From Aquirufa sp. (GTDB taxonomy: Bacteria > Bacteroidota > Bacteroidia > Cytophagales > Spirosomataceae): 64,000 bases of DNA. The notes under the pieces were generated by a model. It was not told the DNA's origin, did not search any database, and worked only from the letters and a program-made list of their open reading frames with translations. The stretch spans positions 49,398-113,397 of the forward strand of contig JBBAKU010000005.1 in NCBI GenBank assembly GCA_040403415.1. Reading direction: 5' to 3'. A program made the translations under genes and the position numbers. Of the stretch, positions 2,071 to 12,830 are shown piece by piece (positions within the stretch are counted from its first letter, which is position 1; every line of letters starts with the position of its first letter).

Positions 2071-2580
2071 ATGAAAAAAATTCTATTCCTATTCTTTATA
2101 AGCATTACTATGTCCCAGGCCCAAACGGCGCCAGCGCTCGATTTCTTCTGTGAACTGAAAGTAAAACTGGATCCTGCCTTAATCGTAGGCGAAACCCCTC
2201 ACGGAACGCGCCGCATTATTCCTATTATCGGTGGAACGGTGGAAGGACCGAAAATCAAGGGTGAAATCCTGAATGGTGGAGCCGATTGGCAAATATTGCG
2301 AGCGGATGGAGTAACCGAATTAGAAGCACATTACCAATTTAGAACGGATGATGGCACCTTGATTTATGTCAAAAATACAGGTATTCGTGCTGCCACTCCC
2401 GAAATCGCGGCACGATTAGCTAAAGGGGAAAAGGTAGATGCGAACGAATACTATTTCCGGGCGATGCCTAAATTCGATGCGCCTAAAGGCAAATACGATT
2501 GGGTCAACAACAGCCTCTTTGTATGTACGGGAGAGCGCTTGCCGGATTACGTGTTGATTCGTGTTTGGAAAGTAATGTAA
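2071..2580 (+). CDS. DUF3237 family protein with predicted Sec signal peptide
   Basis: GETPHGTRRIIPIIGGTVEGP, GGADWQ, TDDG and YYFR..PKF motifs; N-terminus MKKILFLFFISITMSQAQ. Confidence 0.88.
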   Translation: MKKILFLFFISITMSQAQTAPALDFFCELKVKLDPALIVGETPHGTRRIIPIIGGTVEGPKIKGEILNGGADWQILRADGVTELEAHYQFRTDDGTLIYVKNTGIRAATPEIAARLAKGEKVDANEYYFRAMPKFDAPKGKYDWVNNSLFVCTGERLPDYVLIRVWKVM

Positions 2581-3758
2581 TGCCGATGAGAGCGATACAA
2601 GTACTGATTATTTTGATCTGCTTTCTGTGCAACATGCTCGATGGCATGGATGTGTTGATCATTTCTTATACGGCTCCGGCGATTGCGAAGGCCTGGAGTA
2701 TTTCCCCAGCAAATTTAGGGATTGTGTTTAGTTCTGGCCTGGTGGGAATGACGGTGGGAGCGATATTTTTAGCTCCGCTGGCGGATCGTTTTGGGCGGAA
2801 GCCGTTAATGATTCTGGCGGCGGTGATTATGGGAACCTGTATTTATTTGACGTCCTACTCGACAGATGTGAACGTTTTAATGATTTACCGCTTTATCAGT
2901 GGGCTGGGAATCGGGACGATGATGGCGAGTACAGCGGCGATTACGGCGGAATATGCTCCTGCATCTACGCGCGATTTTTGGGTGAGCACGGTGGTGGCGG
3001 GCTATCCGGTGGGAGCCGTGTTAACGGGCATTTCGTCTGCGAAAATTATTGCAGAAAGCGGCTGGGAGCATCTATTTGAATTGGCGGGATATGCCACTTT
3101 TTTAGTGATTCCTATCTTGTTTTTCTTCCTGAAAGAGTCTGATGAATTTAAGGCCAAAGCAAAGCCAGAAGACGCCAAGATCGGCGCCTTGTTTACGTCT
3201 GATTTTAAGTGGAGCACTTGGCAGCTTTGGAGTGCCCTGTTCCTTTCCTTTACGACCCTTTATTTCTTGATGAACTGGATTCCAAAATTGGCCTCAAATG
3301 CTGGCCTATCGATGGAATTAGCCATTTATTCAGGAACGATCTTTAATCTGGGAGCCATCGTGGGTATTCCGGTGCAAGGCTATTTTTCGACGCGTTTTGG
3401 CTTGAAAAAATCGATCGGAGTTTTGTTATTGATTACGGCTGTTTTATTAGGCATTTTTGGACAATTTTCTGGATCTAATTTGATCTTAGTGGTGTTGTTC
3501 TTCCTCGGCTTCGGGGTGCAGGGCAGCTTTGTAGGCTTGTATGCCGTAGCGGCGAGAATGTATCCCACTGCCATCCGATCGACGGGTATTGGCTGGGCGA
3601 TCGGCATGGGTCGTTTAGGTGGTATTTTAGGTCCGATCTTAGGCGGCATTTTAGTGGGACTAGGATTGGGTATGGCCGAAAGCTTTTTGTTCTTCGCCTT
3701 GCCTTCCTTACTTGCCGGAATTATTACGCTAAAAATTAGTTCCCAAACCATTTCCTAA
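2580..3758 (+). CDS. MFS transporter, aromatic acid:H+ symporter (AAHS, PcaK/BenK-like)
   Basis: TM1 LDGMD, LADRFGRK, YPTAIRSTGIGWAIGMGRLG; ATG at 2580 overlaps the upstream stop (TAATG). Confidence 0.88.
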   Translation: MPMRAIQVLIILICFLCNMLDGMDVLIISYTAPAIAKAWSISPANLGIVFSSGLVGMTVGAIFLAPLADRFGRKPLMILAAVIMGTCIYLTSYSTDVNVLMIYRFISGLGIGTMMASTAAITAEYAPASTRDFWVSTVVAGYPVGAVLTGISSAKIIAESGWEHLFELAGYATFLVIPILFFFLKESDEFKAKAKPEDAKIGALFTSDFKWSTWQLWSALFLSFTTLYFLMNWIPKLASNAGLSMELAIYSGTIFNLGAIVGIPVQGYFSTRFGLKKSIGVLLLITAVLLGIFGQFSGSNLILVVLFFLGFGVQGSFVGLYAVAARMYPTAIRSTGIGWAIGMGRLGGILGPILGGILVGLGLGMAESFLFFALPSLLAGIITLKISSQTIS

Positions 3759-4819
3759 TGCGCAAACACAATTTCTTTCCTGGACCGGCGACTCTTCCCT
3801 TTGAGGTTATTCAAGAGGCAGCGGCGGGTTTAGTTGACTACAATGGGATGGGCGTTTCCATTGCGGAAATCAGCCACCGTTCACCCATTTTCACAGATTT
3901 AGTAGACGAGGCGAATGCGCTCGTGAAAAAACTCTATGGCCTTTCGGATGATTGGGCGGTGCTTTGGTTGCCCGGTGGAGCCTCCAGTCAGCTGACGGTT
4001 GCCCCGATGAATCTGACGGAACCTTCGGACAAGATTGCCTTTGTGGACACGGGGTTTTGGGCGGATAGAGCTATCGAAGCGGCGGCGAATGAGGCGAATG
4101 CCTTCTTTTTAGCTTCTTCCAAAGACACGAACTACGACCGAATCCCTAAAATCACAGACGTTCAAGGCGCACGATATTTACACATAGTTTCGAATGAGAC
4201 GATCGACGGAACACAATACCACGCGTTCCCCGACGTCGATGTCCCCTTAGTCGCAGATATGACGTCTGATTTCTTGTCGAGACCTTTGCCGATGGAGAAA
4301 TTTGGGGTGATTTTCGCATCAGCTCAGAAGAATTTTGGGATTGCAGGGATTACCTGTGTGCTAGTCAACAAAGCAGTTTTGCCCGAGAAAAATAGCCGAA
4401 AGGTTCCTAAGATTTTTAACTACCATACGCACATCGCAGAAAATTCACTTTACCATACCATCCCGACTTATCCGGTTTATGTGGCGCTATTGATGCTTCG
4501 GTATATTGATAAAAAAGGTGGACTATCGGAAATGCAACGTTTGAGTCAGCAAAAATCCGCTTTGATTTACAACGAAATCGACCGAAACCCCCTGCTTCAG
4601 GGAATTGTGGCTACCGAAGATCGCTCCGTGATGAACGCCTGCTTTACGAGTCAATCGCCGGAGTTGGATCAAAAAATTAACTTGTTTTTAGAGCGAAATG
4701 ACATTGTGGGAATTAAAGGTTTTCCTACCAAAGGAGGTTTCAGAGCCTCCATCTACAACGGCCAACCGCTAGCCAGCGTGGCTCATTTAGTCGATTTATT
4801 GCAAAACTTGCCCCTATGA
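3758..4819 (+). CDS. SerC-like class V PLP aminotransferase, divergent paralog
   Basis: GPATLP, EISHRS, SNETIDG, AQKN (PLP Lys191) and RASIYN; GHR motif replaced by GFP. Confidence 0.85.
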   Translation: MRKHNFFPGPATLPFEVIQEAAAGLVDYNGMGVSIAEISHRSPIFTDLVDEANALVKKLYGLSDDWAVLWLPGGASSQLTVAPMNLTEPSDKIAFVDTGFWADRAIEAAANEANAFFLASSKDTNYDRIPKITDVQGARYLHIVSNETIDGTQYHAFPDVDVPLVADMTSDFLSRPLPMEKFGVIFASAQKNFGIAGITCVLVNKAVLPEKNSRKVPKIFNYHTHIAENSLYHTIPTYPVYVALLMLRYIDKKGGLSEMQRLSQQKSALIYNEIDRNPLLQGIVATEDRSVMNACFTSQSPELDQKINLFLERNDIVGIKGFPTKGGFRASIYNGQPLASVAHLVDLLQNLPL

Positions 4820-6054
4820 AAATATTAATTGCCGGCGGAGGAATTGGAGGATTAGTGACAGCGATGCGCTTGCATCAGGCCGGGTTTGAAGTGAAGGTTT
4901 TTGAGTCCGTAGAGGAAGTGAAACCGCTTGGGGTGGGAATCAATTTGCTACCTCACGCTGTACGTGTGTTGACAAATATTGGTTTGTTACCGAAAGTCTC
5001 AGCCATTGCGGTAGAGACAAAGGAGTTAATCTATGCGAACCGTTTTGGCCAGTTTTTCTGGTCAGAACCGCGGGGAAAATTCGCTGGATATCGCTGGCCG
5101 CAGTTTTCGATTCACCGCGGGAAATTCCAGGTGATGCTTTGGGAAGAAACCCTAAAAACTATCGGTGACGAGAACATAAAAACGAATTGCCATTTACATT
5201 CTTTTGAAGAAAAGGAGGACAAAATCACGGCTACGTTTATCAACAAGGAAACGGGGCAGATCGTAGCGGAGGAAGAGGGAGATATCTTGATAGGTGCGGA
5301 TGGAATCAATTCCGTTTTGCGTCAAAAATTATGCCCTAATGAGGGTGGAGTCGTATTTTCTGGCAATATTTTATACCGTGGAACAGCTGAGATAAAGCCT
5401 TATAAATCAGGTTCTTCCATGGCTATGATTGGGTCCAACAAGCAGAAAATGGTCATCTATCCCATAGGCGAACCCGACGCAGAGGGGAATCAAGTTATCA
5501 ACTGGGTAGCGAATGTTCGCGAACCGGAAGGGGCAAACATCACGGTGCGCGATTGGAATCGCAAAGTGGAAAAAGGTCCGTTACTGGAACTTTACAAAGA
5601 CTGGAAATTTGACTGGATCGATGTGCCGGAGATGATCGAAAAAACAGATGGCGGCATCTTTGAATTCCCCATGTCAGATAGAAATCCATTGGACAAATGG
5701 TCTTTCTCCCGTGTCACTCTTTTAGGGGATGCGGCGCACCCGATGTACCCCATCGGATCGAATGGCGCATCGCAAGCGATTTTGGATGCGGACGCTTTGG
5801 CCTTAGCTTTGTTAGCAGAAAAAGACGTCATTCAAGCGCTCGTTCATTACGACAAAGAACGCGTCCCTGCCACGGCAAAAGTGGTCCTACAAAATCGCCA
5901 AAAAGGACCCGATTTCATTATGGATTTAATGGAAGATCGTTTCCCAGCTGGCTTTAGTGAGGCCGAAATTCCGCACGAAGAACTAGCACAAATTATGAAT
6001 CAATATAAACAAGTAGCCGGTTTTGACATCCAAAGCCTGAACGCTAAAACGTAG
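4816..6054 (+). CDS. Group A FAD-dependent monooxygenase, PhzS-like
   Basis: GGGIGG, PLGVGINLLP, WSEPRG..AGYRWPQFSIHRG, IGADG, GDAAHPMYPIGSNGASQAI. Confidence 0.88.
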   Translation: MKILIAGGGIGGLVTAMRLHQAGFEVKVFESVEEVKPLGVGINLLPHAVRVLTNIGLLPKVSAIAVETKELIYANRFGQFFWSEPRGKFAGYRWPQFSIHRGKFQVMLWEETLKTIGDENIKTNCHLHSFEEKEDKITATFINKETGQIVAEEEGDILIGADGINSVLRQKLCPNEGGVVFSGNILYRGTAEIKPYKSGSSMAMIGSNKQKMVIYPIGEPDAEGNQVINWVANVREPEGANITVRDWNRKVEKGPLLELYKDWKFDWIDVPEMIEKTDGGIFEFPMSDRNPLDKWSFSRVTLLGDAAHPMYPIGSNGASQAILDADALALALLAEKDVIQALVHYDKERVPATAKVVLQNRQKGPDFIMDLMEDRFPAGFSEAEIPHEELAQIMNQYKQVAGFDIQSLNAKT

Positions 6055-6058
6055 AACT

Positions 6059-6442
6059 ATGAAAAGACGTCACTTTATTGCCTCGGCTGGCTTATTAGCA
6101 AGCACTGGTGTTCCAGCTACTGCAGCGGCTAAAAAACCTTTATTGCACCACGTGTTTTTTTGGCTGAATAACCCGAATTCCGAAGAGGATAAACAACAAT
6201 TAATTAAAGGCTTGAAAGCGCTGAAAGGCATTCCTTCGATCAGGGAAATTCACATCGGGACCTTAGCTTCGACCGAAAAACGCGAGGTGGTGGATACCAG
6301 CTGGGATGTGTCAGAGTTGATGTTTTTCGATGATGAGGCCGGCCAAAAAGTGTATCAAGATCACCCCATCCACGTCGATTTCGTAAAGAATTATGCCCAC
6401 TTGTGGAAGAAAGTAATCGTGTATGATTCGGTGGATGCATAG
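6059..6442 (+). CDS. Dabb family (stress-responsive A/B barrel) protein with Tat signal
   Basis: KRRHFI twin-arginine leader; HHVFFWL and YQDHPIH..FV motifs. Confidence 0.85.
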   Translation: MKRRHFIASAGLLASTGVPATAAAKKPLLHHVFFWLNNPNSEEDKQQLIKGLKALKGIPSIREIHIGTLASTEKREVVDTSWDVSELMFFDDEAGQKVYQDHPIHVDFVKNYAHLWKKVIVYDSVDA

Positions 6443-6555
6443 ATGAATTTGTTCCCAAATCCGTAAACGGAACAAAAACTCGAGATCGTTCTGACTGCGC
6501 GAATGTGAAATCCACTTTCTTTGGAAAAATTAGTAACCCTTTAAAAACCAAAGAA

Positions 6556-7083
6556 ATGAAAAAAATCATTCTATTATTCGCACTTGCGGGATCAATCTTC
6601 GCTTGTACAAAAAAAGAAGACGGTGCAGTAGCATCTGCAAGCACTTCAACTGATCCTTCCGCAGTTTTAGCTGGAGTTGTAATCGATACTTCCGCTAACG
6701 TAGGTTTAGTGATGAAGGCAATTCGTGCGATTGAATCAGGTGATTCTGCCGCTTACCGTGCAACATATGCGCCAGATGTCGTATTTCATGACAATTTAGA
6801 TTCAATGGGTCTTAATGAAAATATGACCATGTTTAAAACAATGGCGGAAAAAGGCATTAAGTTAAAAGTCGAGATGGGGCCAGTTTGGGAAAATCAATTC
6901 GATAAGCCTTCTAAGAAAAAAGGCTATACAAACTATGTCATGAGTAAGAGTACCTTTATCTTCACAAGAGGTGAAAAGCAAACGAAAATGGTCATTTTCG
7001 CAGTAGATGCGATCAAAGATGGCAAGCAAGTCGAAGAGTGGTTACACTATGACAGAAGTGCTTTTGTTGAAATTTCAAAATAA
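6556..7083 (+). CDS. Lipoprotein, NTF2/SnoaL-like fold
   Basis: Lipobox IFAC; YAPDVVFHD and IKDGKQVEEW...D patterns typical of SnoaL-like folds; start moved to MKKII. Confidence 0.65.
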   Translation: MKKIILLFALAGSIFACTKKEDGAVASASTSTDPSAVLAGVVIDTSANVGLVMKAIRAIESGDSAAYRATYAPDVVFHDNLDSMGLNENMTMFKTMAEKGIKLKVEMGPVWENQFDKPSKKKGYTNYVMSKSTFIFTRGEKQTKMVIFAVDAIKDGKQVEEWLHYDRSAFVEISK

Positions 7084-7087
7084 AGGA

Positions 7088-7118
7088 TTGGCGCAGCGTC
7101 CTGCGGACGCTGCGCCAA
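7088..7118. terminator. 14-bp perfect GC-rich hairpin between convergent genes
   Basis: TTGGCGCAGCGTCC-TGC-GGACGCTGCGCCAA followed by CTTTT. Confidence 0.7.
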
Positions 7119-7577: not shown

Positions 7578-7683
7578 ATGGGTTTTATTATACGGCAAGG
7601 TAATAAAATAATTTCTCCGTCCTACTCAACCCTAGGACACCGGCATCGGTTTCTTTTCGTACATTCGGTTGAAACCTATTTAT

Positions 7684-10600
7684 ATGAAAAAGTCGATCCT
7701 TGCTTGCTTGCTCTATGTGCTTTCTTTTGTGGCACAAGCGCAGTTCTCCCTACAAAATTTACAAGTTGAATACCAAAAGGCTCCGCTCGGACTTGATGAG
7801 GCACATCCACGCTTTTCATGGCAGATGAATTCGACTGTTCGCAATGCAAAACAAAGCGCCTATCGAATCGTCGTACAGACAGAATCTGGCCAGATTGTTT
7901 GGGATTCCAAAAAGCAAAACACAGACATTTCCATAGGCATTCCATATAACGGTGAAGCCTTACAAGCGAAAACGGGGTACCGCTGGACGCTGGAGGTTTG
8001 GGATTCCGCCAAAAAGAAATCGACACAGAATTCCCATTTCGAAACGAGCCTGATGAATCCAAGTATCGATGCCTGGAAAGGAGCGGAATGGATCGGATCC
8101 AATGACTTGAATTTCTACACGCATTACCTATCTGTTTATAAGTTTCAATACGGAGTTCAAATCGATCAAGGCACGAAAGCAAGCTTTGTTTTTGGGGCAA
8201 ATGACCCGCGACTGCAGAACCGCAATCTGAATATTCAAGACGTGTCTAGCGGCATAAACCAATCTTATGTACGTCTTGAATTAGACCTCTCTGGTCTAGC
8301 TACATCCGATTCAGGCCAAGCTAACTTCCATATTTACCGGGTAGGTTACGACAAAAAAGACCGGGCAGATCAGGCCTTTAAAAGCTTTAAAATTCCATTA
8401 GCTGTCATCCATGCTGGAAATAAATCTCAGAAACATACGGTGTTTGCCGAATGCAATTTTGGCGTATTTGATTTCTACATTGACGCGGTAGACAAAGCCC
8501 ATAAGATTAATCCCACCCCTATAAATGCGAGTCCTTATGCTGCCACAGGCGTGAACCTGAACCCAATCGGGGCTGGAAATAATTTCATTAGTTTTCCGAT
8601 GCTTTCGGAAATCGGGTTTGCCACAGAGGCGGGAGAATCCGCCCGTTTCTCGGAGGTGATCATTCGCAATTTTAGACTGCCTAGCAATCCCTTATTTGAA
8701 GCTTCTCAGAATCCTGGATTATGGAAAGATTTACCTTTTGATGGAAAGACATTTAGCGTTTCTGGAAAATTTAGCGTAGCTAATCCAAGCCGACACGCGG
8801 CGCCGATGTTGCGCACAGAATTTGTAGCGACTACAGGAAAAACAATCAAAAGTGCCCGAATTTATGCCACGGCGCGTGGAATATATGAGCTGTATTTAAA
8901 TGGGAAACGGGTAGGAGACGAGTTCTTTAATCCGGGATTAACTCAATATAATAAAACGCATACCTACCAGGTTTTTGATGTGACATCGCTATTAAACATA
9001 GGTAAAAATGCCTGGGGAGCCTGGTTAAGTGAAGGCTGGTGGAGCGGTAATATTACGTACAGTGGTGATAGTTGGAACTATTTTGGTGATCGTCAATCAC
9101 TGCTAGCTACCTTAGAAATTCGCTATACAGATGGAACTGAGCAGGTTATTCAGACAAATCCGAACACTTGGAAATCGTTCACGGATGGACCCATCCGCGT
9201 GGGAAGTTTCTTCCAAGGTGAAGTGTATGATGCCCGAAAAAATGCAGCGATCGAAGGCTGGTCAGTGACAAATTTCAATGATAAAAACTGGAAGCCGGCT
9301 GCAAAAATCGGCTTAGAGGGAACGAGTTTCGCCCTAGATTACCAAGGGATGAAATTAGTGAATCACTTGGATGATCGCGTAACGGTGCAGCAAGTACTGC
9401 AAGCGAAGTCCATCGCCGAACCTAGAAAAGGCGTCTTTATCTATGATATGGGCCAAAATATGGTCGGATTTCCTAAGATTTTCATCAAAAACGGAAAGCC
9501 GGGACAGGTCATCACGATGCGTTTTGCCGAAGTTTTATACCCCGATTTAGCGGAATATGCCGGCCAAAAAGGAATGATTATGCTCGAGAATATCCGAGCA
9601 GCCTTAGCACAAGATATCCACATTTTGAAAGGTGGAGACGAATACATTCAACCGCGCTTCACTTTCCACGGCTACCGTTACCTGGAAATAACAGGAGTCG
9701 AACAAGCGCCTGAATTGCCGCAGGTAGCCGGAATCGTTCTATCCTCTATTAAAAATATCAGTTCTTCCTACGAGACATCTAACCCCATGGTCAACAAATT
9801 GTGGTCTAACATTACCTGGTCGATGCGCTCGAATTTCTTATCTATTCCCACCGATACGCCTGCGCGTAATGAACGCATGGGCTGGAGCGGTGACATCAAT
9901 GTGTTCTCTAAAACAGCCACGATGATGGCCCCTGTGAATAACTTCATGCGCCGCCACTTACTAGGCATGCGGGATGTGCAGCGTGCCGACGGCCGATTCA
10001 CTGATGTGGCGCCGATGGGCGGAGGTTTTGGCGGAACCTTGTGGGGTAGCGCGGGTATCGTGATTCCCTGGGAAACCTATTTACAATATGGCGACAAGGC
10101 GATGCTGACGGAGCATTATCCGGCGATGAAACGCTATATGACTTTCCTTGATTCGAAAGTCAAAGATGGCATATTAAACGAAGGGCCATTAGGTGATTGG
10201 CTCAGTCCGGAGGGCAATAAAAACGACAACACGCTATTCTGGATGGCCTACCAGGCAGCAGATTTAGCGATCGTTTCGAAAGCTGCCCGTGTTTTAGGAT
10301 TAACCATAGAGGCGGATCAGTATTTAGCCCAAAGCGAAGCCAAAAAAATCGCCTTCAACGAAATTTACGTAGACAAAATCACCTTTAAAACCATCAAATC
10401 TGGCGTAAAAACCGGCTTTATGGGACCGCCAAATGCGAATGCTGCACCGGAAGCGTCGGATAAAGGTCAATTAATGGACACGCAGGCGTCTTATGCGATT
10501 CCTTTGGCATTAAACGTCTTCAACGCAACTAATGCCCCTCACGCGCTGGCACATTTAGTCGAAACCATCACCCGTTCGAATAAAGACGATCAAGGCGAAG

Positions 10601-11190
10601 CCCGTCCACCCTATTCCTTGATGACGGGATTCATCGGGACTGCCTCTATTTCTGAAGCCCTTTCAGCAAATGGAAAACACGACATCGCCTACGGTCTATT
10701 GACCACAAAAACTTACCCCTCTTGGTTGTATTCGGTGGCGAATGGAGCGACCAGTATTTGGGAAAGACTGAACTCCTACACGATCGAAAACGGATTCGGG
10801 GGGAACAACAGCATGAACTCCTTTAACCACTATTCCTTCGGTGCCGTGGCAGCTTGGATGTACACGCATTCGTTAGGGATTCAACGCGATCCAGAAAGTC
10901 CAGGTTATCAACATTTCATATTGCAGCCTACACCTGATCTTTCTGGTAAGATTACGTATGCCAAAGGGAATGTAGAAACCATGTACGGTAACATCAAAAG
11001 CGAGTGGTCGAAGCAAGGAAATAAAACGACTTATCGTTTCACTATTCCGGCGAATACTTCCGCTCAAATTAAGTTAATGGGTCAGAAAATAGTGAAGGGA
11101 TTACCTCCGGTAAAAACAAAAACCAGCGCGGATCGAATCGAATTCGAGCTCGGCGCTGGCCTTTATGAACTAGTGGTGGAAGTAGATTAG
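7684..11190 (+). CDS. Alpha-L-rhamnosidase, GH78, secreted
   Basis: PRFSW, TARGIYE, DMGQNMVG, PRFTFHGYRY, PTDTPARNERMGWSGD, GATSIWERLN, SMNSFNHY. Confidence 0.93.
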   Translation: MKKSILACLLYVLSFVAQAQFSLQNLQVEYQKAPLGLDEAHPRFSWQMNSTVRNAKQSAYRIVVQTESGQIVWDSKKQNTDISIGIPYNGEALQAKTGYRWTLEVWDSAKKKSTQNSHFETSLMNPSIDAWKGAEWIGSNDLNFYTHYLSVYKFQYGVQIDQGTKASFVFGANDPRLQNRNLNIQDVSSGINQSYVRLELDLSGLATSDSGQANFHIYRVGYDKKDRADQAFKSFKIPLAVIHAGNKSQKHTVFAECNFGVFDFYIDAVDKAHKINPTPINASPYAATGVNLNPIGAGNNFISFPMLSEIGFATEAGESARFSEVIIRNFRLPSNPLFEASQNPGLWKDLPFDGKTFSVSGKFSVANPSRHAAPMLRTEFVATTGKTIKSARIYATARGIYELYLNGKRVGDEFFNPGLTQYNKTHTYQVFDVTSLLNIGKNAWGAWLSEGWWSGNITYSGDSWNYFGDRQSLLATLEIRYTDGTEQVIQTNPNTWKSFTDGPIRVGSFFQGEVYDARKNAAIEGWSVTNFNDKNWKPAAKIGLEGTSFALDYQGMKLVNHLDDRVTVQQVLQAKSIAEPRKGVFIYDMGQNMVGFPKIFIKNGKPGQVITMRFAEVLYPDLAEYAGQKGMIMLENIRAALAQDIHILKGGDEYIQPRFTFHGYRYLEITGVEQAPELPQVAGIVLSSIKNISSSYETSNPMVNKLWSNITWSMRSNFLSIPTDTPARNERMGWSGDINVFSKTATMMAPVNNFMRRHLLGMRDVQRADGRFTDVAPMGGGFGGTLWGSAGIVIPWETYLQYGDKAMLTEHYPAMKRYMTFLDSKVKDGILNEGPLGDWLSPEGNKNDNTLFWMAYQAADLAIVSKAARVLGLTIEADQYLAQSEAKKIAFNEIYVDKITFKTIKSGVKTGFMGPPNANAAPEASDKGQLMDTQASYAIPLALNVFNATNAPHALAHLVETITRSNKDDQGEARPPYSLMTGFIGTASISEALSANGKHDIAYGLLTTKTYPSWLYSVANGATSIWERLNSYTIENGFGGNNSMNSFNHYSFGAVAAWMYTHSLGIQRDPESPGYQHFILQPTPDLSGKITYAKGNVETMYGNIKSEWSKQGNKTTYRFTIPANTSAQIKLMGQKIVKGLPPVKTKTSADRIEFELGAGLYELVVEVD

Positions 11191-12830
11191 CCTAGTGCTT
11201 TTCTGCCCACAGCATCGGGGTTATTAACTAATTGACACGTATCATCGAGGATCATGGTTTCCCCATTTTCCTTCGTGTATGGCTTCCAAGCAGGTAATCC
11301 TCCTCCATTCGGGTTACCAGTTTTGATGAAACTCAAGAAAGATTTTGCCATCTTCGAAGACAAGGCTCTCGGTCTTTTACCACCTCCCGTATGGGTTAAC
11401 ATCAGGTCAGTATTGTAGAACCAAAAACAAATATCATCGCAGTGAAATGCACGCATACGTCCGTCAAAAAGCGGTGGTTGCCATCCGAACCAAGACATAT
11501 ACACTGGCGCCTTACGTTGCGACACTTTCGCATCTGCAGCAGCAATGGCTCCTTTTCTATTTGATAGGATCATCGCCCACACTTCGACCGGTTTTGCTTT
11601 AGGGAAGTTTTGGCTATATGCCTCTACTATTTTACCAGCATCCGCTCCGAAGCGGGGCTTAATTTTTTCTACTACTCCCGCTAAAGTAATCTCTTCTAAA
11701 CTCGCATCCGTGCGGCTAGGGCTGGACTCATGGAAGGTCGTATTAATGATCAATGGAATGTCCGCTGAGAAATGATTCGGATCAGAGAAAAACGGTTGAT
11801 CATTCATCGTCACCCCATCCGCTACCGGTGAAAATCCGCCGCGCGAGATGTTCATTTTCTTCGCTTCTTCAGCGAATTTTTCTACCGCACGCGTAGTAAT
11901 ATCAATGTATTCTCTCCACGGAATTTGTTGTAATTTCTCAATTTCACCTGGCTTAAAACCCGCTTCCTCCATCACCTTCAAGCCTAGCTTTTCTGCATAC
12001 TCCTTGTTCACCCCTGTTAAAGAGGTTCCACTCAAGGCCACTGCTTTATGAAACAAGCCTTTTGCCGCTGGCATATTCATTAGGCAGGTTGCTTTTGCTC
12101 CACCTCCAGATTGACCTATAATGGTCACATTATTAGGGTCTCCACCAAAGTTCGCAATGTTATTTTTCACCCATTCAAGCGCTGCCACCATATCTAAGTT
12201 GCCCACATTTCCTGAGTGCGGATGACCGCCCGCTGCCTTTAAATGCGAATATCCGAAGGGTCCTAGACGGTGATTAATCGAACAGAAAACAATGTTGCCT
12301 AAACGGCTCAAATTCTCGCCATGGTAACCATCTTGCTCAATCGCATTCCCATTCGTAAATCCTCCACCATGCAACCAAACGACCACCGGACGCTTTCCTG
12401 AATCAATCGCAGGAGTCCATACATTTAACTTCAAACAATCTTCCGAAACATCATCGTAATTCCAGTGATCCACAAAAGAGGCATAGGCATTTGAATAACG
12501 CTTCTCCATGATTTGAGGAGCCGTATTCCCCCACCAAACACAAGGCTTGATTTCCTTCCACGCAGCAGGTTTAACTGGCGGCATGAATCGGTTTTTACCA
12601 GACGTATCAGCCCCATAAGGAATGCCTAAAAATTGATTGATGCCACGTAACACAAAGCCTCGCACTTTGCCATACTCTGTATTGGCCACCGCGATGTTAT
12701 CGCCAACAAATAAAATTTGATCATCCGTTGATCCCGCCGCAGGGGACGCGTTCAAAGGACTTGAGCCCACACTGAGTGTGGCAGCTCCTAATCCAAGGGA
12801 TTGGATAAAATTTCTACGATTTGATTTCAT
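11187..12830 (-). CDS. Carboxylesterase type B with Tat signal
   Basis: NRRNFI leader; SEDCLKLNVW, HGGGF, nucleophile GQSGG, FHCDD. Confidence 0.92.
   Translation of the reverse strand: MKSNRRNFIQSLGLGAATLSVGSSPLNASPAAGSTDDQILFVGDNIAVANTEYGKVRGFVLRGINQFLGIPYGADTSGKNRFMPPVKPAAWKEIKPCVWWGNTAPQIMEKRYSNAYASFVDHWNYDDVSEDCLKLNVWTPAIDSGKRPVVVWLHGGGFTNGNAIEQDGYHGENLSRLGNIVFCSINHRLGPFGYSHLKAAGGHPHSGNVGNLDMVAALEWVKNNIANFGGDPNNVTIIGQSGGGAKATCLMNMPAAKGLFHKAVALSGTSLTGVNKEYAEKLGLKVMEEAGFKPGEIEKLQQIPWREYIDITTRAVEKFAEEAKKMNISRGGFSPVADGVTMNDQPFFSDPNHFSADIPLIINTTFHESSPSRTDASLEEITLAGVVEKIKPRFGADAGKIVEAYSQNFPKAKPVEVWAMILSNRKGAIAAADAKVSQRKAPVYMSWFGWQPPLFDGRMRAFHCDDICFWFYNTDLMLTHTGGGKRPRALSSKMAKSFLSFIKTGNPNGGGLPAWKPYTKENGETMILDDTCQLVNNPDAVGRKALG

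Follow-up and report, generated by a model that had tools for sequence, protein, structure and literature searches.

The 64,000-nucleotide stretch of Aquirufa sp. DNA analyzed here (the window, from contig JBBAKU010000005.1) contains an open reading frame (ORF) whose product, P0001, is probably a functional aminotransferase (AT) that derives from SerC and has acquired a new function; it would no longer serve as a phosphoserine/phosphohydroxythreonine AT, and its substrate would be non-phosphorylated and probably aromatic. By descent and by fold, P0001 is a member of the SerC/phosphoserine aminotransferase (PSAT) clade. It departs from a functional PSAT (EC 2.6.1.52) in three respects, as it lacks the His-Arg pair of the gate loop, scores below the cut-off of the TIGR01364 profile, and shows neither a core distribution nor linkage to serA.

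The change that sets P0001 apart lies in a motif that reads GHRSVGG in solved PSATs and KGFPTKGGFRASIYN in P0001. In HMMER alignments to solved PSATs, the P0001 segment 'ikgfptkggfrasiyn' stands opposite 'ikghrsvggfrasiyn' or 'lkghrsvgglrasiyn'. The original prediction, which was made from the DNA sequence alone, had placed Phe-Pro (F322-P323) where the canonical proteins have His-Arg; the ORF translation and the HMMER alignments show that both the residues and their coordinates were exact, and the variant is present in the closest homologues as well. H40-R41, K191, and R329, which had been described as retained, are all kept, and the altered motifs YHTIP and FASAQKNFGIAG were confirmed from residues 232 and 186, respectively. 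D167 is kept alongside them. We refer to the homologues that share the variant gate-loop motif as the GFP clade. In a sequence alignment, the residues of the pyridoxal 5'-phosphate (PLP) machinery (K191, D167, W101, and T148) and the carboxylate ligand R329 are all present and are invariant or nearly so; H40-R41, the second phosphate-binding His-Arg pair (in the N-terminal loop), is invariant.

The structure of Arabidopsis PSAT1 (AtPSAT1) crystallized with phosphoserine supports the premise, also part of the original prediction, that two His-Arg pairs bind the substrate phosphate. In this structure, direct hydrogen bonds to the phosphate come from H396/R397, on the mobile gate-keeping loop, and from H110*/R111*, contributed by the other subunit; R403 is the carboxylate ligand (PMC6043687). 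The gate-keeping loop of PSATs, which carries the phosphate-binding His-Arg, is the beta13-beta14 loop (PMC6043687). By spacing from R329, AtPSAT1 H396/R397, H110*/R111*, and R403 correspond to F322/P323, H40/R41, and R329 of P0001, respectively.

The variant is a property of a whole clade. Among the 120 closest database homologues (57-95% identity), the motif begins GFP in 114, GYH in 2, and GYP in 1, and the remaining 3 are fragments without this region. The commonest homologue motifs are GFPT[VK]GGFRAS[IM]YN together with FASAQKNFG[IML]AG and LYHT.P, and the variant is retained down to 53% identity. Position 322 always bears a large aromatic residue (F, Y (two members), or W), followed at 323 by P, H, or S, and the W-S combination occurs in a Saprospiraceae member; residue 325 is K in P0001 and V in most clade members. 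In an alignment of 207 sequences, 180 of them from outside the clade, 132 of these 180 have H-R at the gate-loop pair. Relative to these 132 canonical proteins, the GFP clade has ten fixed substitutions: F70W, F79L, E108A, T144V, S169T, Y186F, G188S, N233H, H322F, and R323P. Positions N233, S169, and G188 correspond to AtPSAT1 N306*, S243, and G262, which contact the PLP phosphate directly, via water, or via the backbone (PMC6043687), suggesting that the cofactor-phosphate and distal-pocket region was rebuilt as a whole.

In a maximum-likelihood tree, the GFP clade is monophyletic (SH-aLRT 100, stem 0.28) and nested in Bacteroidia SerC, and its sister is a canonical GHR protein from a family that also includes a canonical SerC of Lewinella. 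An exhaustive, profile-free search of 1.8 billion representatives returned only one representative of a 50%-identity cluster (388 bits), after which scores fell to 278 bits for ordinary SerC. The spread of the clade is patchy (Aquirufa, Spirosomataceae, Lewinella, and Saprospiraceae), and the GFP-type gene was found in 0 of 400 other Bacteroidota representatives searched; it is thus an accessory gene that is patchily distributed and was probably transferred laterally. The nearest genomic copies are those of Aquirufa originis (97% protein identity) and A. antheringensis (95%).

Gate-loop variation is also seen elsewhere in SerC_1. The 50%-identity SerC_1 representatives (P0122-P0271) include HK, YR, HA, HG, HQ, HP, NP, and YK pairs, and there may be several other specificity offshoots within SerC_1. 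One distant member with 35% identity, P0254 (L018:127-1221, on a 2-kb contig of JGI 3300017344), reads KGFPTIGGVRVSIYN; it has the same F-P-T replacement and lies elsewhere in the tree with P0125 and P0147, so that its variant looks like an independent, convergent origin.

Several observations indicate that the gene encodes a working enzyme. Median pairwise dN/dS among nine Aquirufa orthologues is 0.035, a value that reflects purifying selection, and the reading frame is unbroken in all homologues. P0001 matches solved PSATs with E values of ~1e-80 and 36-40% identity, and Pfam Aminotran_5 with 94 bits. Its AlphaFold2 (AF2) model has a mean predicted local distance difference test (pLDDT) score of 96.2, and Foldseek superimposes it on PSATs with a TM score of 0.95 and a root mean square deviation of 1.5 A. 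Because the clade is conserved, dN/dS is low, the PLP residues are retained, and the predicted fold is that of a PSAT, P0001 is likely a functional enzyme with an intact catalytic core, which agrees with the earlier proposal of an active AT.

The genome of the host offers a candidate for the housekeeping role that P0001 would have left. In the window's assembly (2.26 Mb, 84.6% complete), the search for a separate canonical GHR serC, or any second SerC_1 gene, found none; only two distant class V ATs were detected, and a distant AT of the type represented by structure 3ffr lies next to serA instead. The picture is the same in A. originis, which has the 97%-identical copy. The host 3ffr-type AT matches Cytophaga hutchinsonii structure 3ffr (deposited as 'phosphoserine aminotransferase SerC') with an E value of 5e-106, and its adjacency to serA is kept in A. 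originis, A. avitistagni, and a Spirosomataceae metagenome-assembled genome (MAG). This gene is present in 131 of the 201 Cytophagales genomes searched, including 12 of 12 from the same family; a SerC_1 gene is present in 11 of the 201, the window's genome being one of them. None of the ten other SerC_1 carriers has a protein of the GFP clade (identities to P0001 are <=44%); the motif is GHR in nine of them, and at the tenth locus the contig ends before the motif is reached. SerC_1 is absent from a 99%-complete genome of the same genus and from all 12 same-family genomes searched, and pdxJ is present in both genomes tested for it (the same-genus genome and one of the same family), each without SerC_1; the window's genome carries pdxA and pdxJ. 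Taken together, these distributions indicate that neither serine synthesis nor 1-deoxy-D-xylulose 5-phosphate (DXP)-dependent PLP synthesis in this lineage depends on SerC_1. In addition, a Lewinella MAG has the GFP-type gene plus a canonical GHR SerC, and the GFP-type gene is never found beside serA, where the 3ffr-type gene is found.

Based on these comparisons, the 3ffr-type AT next to serA is likely the housekeeping serine-pathway enzyme of the host. Together with the clade-wide loss of the gate-loop pair, its presence and the pdxJ genomes that lack SerC_1 support the part of the original prediction in which P0001 acts on a non-phosphorylated substrate and is not the housekeeping PSAT. The same prediction had called P0001 a SerC paralog. 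Its derivation from SerC is upheld, but its paralogy within this genome is not; since there is no canonical GHR serC in the genome and the housekeeping candidate is a distant 3ffr-type protein, P0001 is better described as a laterally acquired SerC derivative.

The expectation that pipelines would mislabel the gene serC is supported. P0001 passes NCBIfam NF003764 (376 bits against a cut-off of 253) and falls under the stricter TIGR01364 (serC_1; 357.1 bits against 443.6), and clade members are labeled '3-phosphoserine/phosphohydroxythreonine transaminase' by NCBI and JGI. The 3ffr-type AT scores below every NCBIfam serC cut-off (best serC_3, 126 versus 401 bits), so that pipelines would leave it unnamed.

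The AT gene lies within a tightly packed operon (positions 2071-7083) in the order DUF3237, major facilitator superfamily (MFS) transporter, AT, FAD monooxygenase, Dabb, and SnoaL-like (Table 1). The MFS transporter scores 322, 241, and 226 bits against TIGR00895, MhpT, and PcaK, all under their cut-offs. The FAD monooxygenase scores 551 bits against PRK07538 (cut-off 400) and matches the PhzS structures 2rgj/3c96 with an E value of 4e-81. Assignment of this protein as a kynurenine 3-monooxygenase (KMO) or a urate hydroxylase was considered and rejected, as PhzS is matched with 276 bits and HpxO-like structures with ~69, and no KMO structure was matched. Characterized DUF3237 enzymes are cofactor-less and act on phenolics; they include PhcF/PhcG and PinX, which are decarboxylases of lignin-derived dimers, and the hydroalkoxylase PhnH. 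The three small barrel-type proteins of the operon are all predicted to be exported (DUF3237 by Sec, Dabb by Tat, and the SnoaL-like protein by its lipobox).

Table 1. Features of the AT gene, its operon, and the serA-linked AT of the host (window positions unless a contig or locus is given)
Feature	Position	Strand	Remarks
DUF3237 protein, first gene of operon	2071..2580	+	N-terminal signal peptide MKKILFLFFISITMSQAQ; DUF3237 175 bits
MFS transporter, aromatic acid/H+ symporter (AAHS) type	2582..3758	+	Probable start ATG 2582; stop overlaps AT start
SerC_1-type class V AT, GFP clade (P0001)	3758..4819	+	353 aa; ORF translation, profile and fold matches
H40-R41 codons	3875..3880	+	Kept half of anion-binding site; partner-subunit contribution in PSAT dimers
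K191 codon	4328..4330	+	Schiff-base lysine
H233-T234 codons	4454..4459	+	Canonical Asn-Thr binds PLP phosphate of partner subunit; Asn-to-His change clade-specific
F322-P323 codons	4721..4726	+	TTTCCT; in place of phosphate-binding gate-loop His-Arg
R329 codon	4742..4744	+	Alpha-carboxylate-binding arginine
PhzS-like group A FAD monooxygenase	4816..6054	+	Start overlaps AT stop (ATGA), 4 nt
Dabb (stress-responsive A/B barrel) protein	6059..6442	+	Tat-type signal KRRHFIASAG...AAA
SnoaL/NTF2-like lipoprotein, last gene of operon	6556..7083	+	MKKIILLFALAGSIFAC lipobox (FAC); weak SnoaL matches
GC-rich hairpin, 14-15 pairs	7088..7118	.	T tracts on both strands; bidirectional terminator-like, closes operon
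3ffr-type class V AT	G000:C3:12375-13448 = L002:1402-2478	-	358 aa; immediately downstream of serA
serA	L002:2480-3931	-	PRK11790, 647 bits

The pairing of the AT with the FAD monooxygenase, with or without DUF3237 and MFS genes, recurs in shuffled order in Aquirufa, Spirosomataceae, and Saprospiraceae. Carriers of the pair are the main Aquirufa group, Aquirufa sp. ROCK2-A2 (73% identity), A. avitistagni (63%), a metagenome contig (64%), a Spirosomataceae MAG (60%), and a Saprospiraceae MAG (53%). At one locus, L081, the order is pobA, pcaIJ, pcaF, AT, FAD monooxygenase, a dienelactone-hydrolase-like esterase, and a rhamnosidase, with pobA and pcaF both over their cut-offs (551 and 616 bits); in another genome the AT gene has neighbors encoding a 4,5-DOPA extradiol dioxygenase (345 bits) and an intradiol dioxygenase. 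The suggestion that the substrate is 'possibly aromatic' gains support from these settings, that is, from the coupling to a PhzS-like gene and the recurrence with DUF3237, AAHS, pobA-pcaIJ-pcaF, and ring-cleavage dioxygenase genes. The DUF3237 protein has a signal peptide in 3 of 3 clusters with an MFS gene and in 0 of 5 without one, a pattern suggesting that a first step takes place outside the cytoplasm and that import follows.

Just downstream of the operon in the window are genes for an alpha-L-rhamnosidase (1173 aa, 7669-11190, plus strand) and an esterase/lipase-like protein (547 aa, 11187-12830, minus strand). As a rhamnosidase also follows the AT-FAD pair at L081, its presence near both loci suggests a setting of plant-glycoside or phenolic-ester utilization.

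Based on the above results, we propose the following route for the origin and role of P0001. A canonical Bacteroidia SerC ancestor would have become a functional PLP-dependent AT that has left the phosphoserine/phosphohydroxythreonine role. With an aromatic F, Y, or W, followed by P, H, or S, in place of its His-Arg phosphate clamp, the gate loop would have lost two of four phosphate ligands and gained a hydrophobic lid, and the surroundings of the cofactor phosphate would have been retuned (N233H, S169T, G188S, and Y186F). The retained H40/R41, R329, and K191 should still permit the glutamate/2-oxoglutarate half-reaction. As second substrate we envisage an alpha-amino or alpha-keto acid that is not phosphorylated and is probably aromatic (phenolic), because the gene is translationally coupled to that for an aromatic-ring hydroxylase and occurs repeatedly in aromatic-catabolic contexts. 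In the host, P0001 would be a cytoplasmic AT directly coupled to the PhzS-like flavin hydroxylase, and its compound would be taken up by the aromatic-acid/H+ symporter, possibly after extracellular processing by the DUF3237, Dabb, and SnoaL-like proteins. For the synthesis of serine and vitamin B6, the host would rely on the 3ffr-type class V AT encoded beside serA.

Several observations weigh against this proposal or limit its reach. With H40/R41 retained, P0001 could still bind a phosphate, sulfonate, or carboxylate as an anionic group, if perhaps weakly, and the gate-loop pair is variable at its second residue among otherwise ordinary SerC_1 proteins (HK, HA, HG, and YR), so that the pair is not absolutely required across the family. 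The window's assembly is of limited completeness, and the PSAT role of the 3ffr-type AT is itself deduced from the depositor's name, its adjacency to serA, and its distribution; we found no account of the function of 3ffr/CHU_0995 in the literature. Four clade members (L016, L017, L064, and L082) have no FAD or DUF3237 neighbor, and two genomes have the FAD-DUF3237 pair without any AT (L078 = G011:C1 and L079 = G478:C34); together these loci rule out a universal AT-FAD-DUF3237 link. Finally, tblastn with the L081 and L080 proteins found no pobA, pcaF, or ring-cleavage homologues in the window's genome. A complete beta-ketoadipate or ring-cleavage route in this genome was on this account rejected, and the Aquirufa module may transform rather than mineralize its aromatic compound.

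The loci in which a partner is missing are of interest in their own right. The PhzS-like FAD monooxygenase and DUF3237 form the tighter core pair. Where this pair occurs without the AT, it adjoins a short-chain dehydrogenase/reductase in one genome, and in the other it lies between feruloyl-esterase-like hydrolases (a CBM48-esterase and a BD-FAE-type esterase) and an FMN-dependent alpha-hydroxy-acid dehydrogenase. These AT-less settings hint at hydroxycinnamate-ester or aryl-lactate substrates, and, more speculatively, an alpha-hydroxy-acid dehydrogenase in the place of the AT would fit an arylpyruvate-type hub. The FAD gene is missing from one Aquirufa-like contig, which has AT-Dabb-SnoaL. 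The contigs of MAG bin-3032 (CAJCBY01; L059 and L053) contain a full DUF3237-MFS-AT-FAD locus plus an AT-Dabb-SnoaL locus without the FAD gene, which may represent strain heterogeneity or a recent deletion. The closely related loci L017 (P0060) and L083 (P0045) share a common backbone, with Nramp upstream and tail-fiber-like genes downstream; one has AT(GFP)-FAD-DUF3237, and the other has lost the FAD and DUF3237 genes and its AT reads G-Y-H, possibly as a secondary change once the partner genes were gone.

We considered other explanations of these data. The substrate of an AT of new function might instead be aliphatic, either a small or a dicarboxylic amino/keto acid, H40/R41 then holding a single carboxylate or sulfonate; examples would be a ring-fission product, aspartate/oxaloacetate, alanine/pyruvate, or a sulfonated analogue such as cysteate. 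The invariant H40/R41 and R329 would fit a mono-anionic distal group, the gene at L081 comes after pcaIJ-pcaF, which represent the beta-ketoadipate route at its aliphatic end, and some clade members have no aromatic-enzyme neighbor. We nevertheless regard a non-aromatic substrate as unlikely, as the gate-loop His is always replaced by F, Y, or W, which would be better suited to a hydrophobic or aromatic ligand, and the tightest and most recurrent partner of the gene, with which it has an overlapping stop and start, encodes an aromatic-ring hydroxylase.

It is less probable still that P0001 remains a phosphoserine and/or phosphohydroxythreonine AT, redundant or condition-specific, with H40/R41 and further residues, for example K325, holding the phosphate. 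Both gate-loop phosphate ligands were lost together, K325 is V in most clade members, and the TIGR01364 score is well under its cut-off, although the NF003764 equivalog is passed, H40/R41 are kept, and R323-equivalents vary in other SerC_1 proteins. The pdxA and pdxJ genes of the host imply a need for a phosphohydroxythreonine AT, but the SerC_1 gene is absent from the 99%-complete same-genus genome and the 12 same-family genomes, of which the two tested have pdxJ. A canonical GHR copy is kept beside the GFP-type gene in the Lewinella MAG, and, unlike the 3ffr-type gene, the GFP-type gene never adjoins serA; it shares its operon with aromatic-compound genes. A decaying or non-catalytic SerC relic is very improbable: dN/dS across Aquirufa is low, the frame is intact in all homologues, the PLP-binding and catalytic residues are invariant, and the variant motif is kept to 53% identity. 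These features stand against the loss of two conserved substrate-binding residues and the further change, to Y-H, in two clade members that lost their FAD and DUF3237 neighbors.

If P0001 is a SerC-derived AT for a non-phosphorylated aromatic substrate, it would have consequences for both enzyme evolution and annotation. A 2022 review of aminotransferase evolution describes a PSAT clade with phosphorylated substrates only (PMC9309667). As a well-supported branch whose distal pocket would have been rebuilt, the GFP clade would extend the PSAT clade by a new specificity and would exemplify how two gate-loop residues can switch an AT from a phospho-substrate to another substrate class. Our literature search found no report of a SerC-like enzyme paired with PhzS, of DUF3237 paired with aminotransferases, or of the GFP-type variant. 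Tentatively, P0001 might be the first PSAT-clade member to act on a non-phosphorylated aromatic substrate and, with the PhzS-like hydroxylase and DUF3237, might make up a hitherto undescribed, horizontally mobile module with which freshwater Bacteroidota import and convert a phenolic amino/keto acid of plant or humic origin. The recurrent AT-FAD-DUF3237 module would in that case point to an uncharacterized step of aromatic turnover in these abundant freshwater organisms. For annotation, a Cytophagales gene called serC by pipelines is probably not an enzyme of the serine or PLP pathway, and the probable real one, of the 3ffr type, is missed. Surveys of PLP pathways report 'missing SerC/PdxF' holes (PMC9997740); misassigned SerC proteins would feed such holes and could give false calls of auxotrophy or prototrophy.

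The members of the module can be compared with known systems. The DUF3237 protein of the window belongs to the same family as PhcF/PhcG, PinX, and PhnH, and the known members all act on phenolic aromatics; unlike them, it is predicted to be exported by virtue of its signal peptide, and it is distant from PhnH (E value of 2e-9). The best match of the FAD monooxygenase is Pseudomonas aeruginosa PhzS (2rgj/3c96), and the related decarboxylative aromatic hydroxylases 6-hydroxynicotinate 3-monooxygenase, salicylate hydroxylase, and vanillate 1-hydroxylase are matched more weakly. Its setting differs from that of PhzS, as there are no phenazine genes at the window locus and the pairing with a SerC-type AT and DUF3237 was not found in the literature. 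The 3ffr-type 'SerC' proteins (C. hutchinsonii CHU_0995 and its host orthologue) resemble P0001 in their class V fold, their length of ~355 aa, and an ISHRS motif; they share only ~25% identity with it, and, unlike the P0001 gene, theirs are serA-adjacent and present in every same-family genome searched. The closest comparison is with SerC/PSAT itself, as represented by the Bacillus (1w3u/1w23), Entamoeba histolytica (5yb0), Arabidopsis PSAT1 (6czz), and Escherichia coli (1bjn) structures. P0001 shares with these enzymes the fold, the Schiff-base Lys, the N1-binding Asp, the stacking Trp, the carboxylate Arg, and the N-terminal His-Arg; it differs from them in having F-P for the gate-loop His-Arg and His for Asn at the PLP phosphate of the partner subunit, and in being encoded by a gene that is neither serA-linked nor core and that is operonic with aromatic-compound genes.

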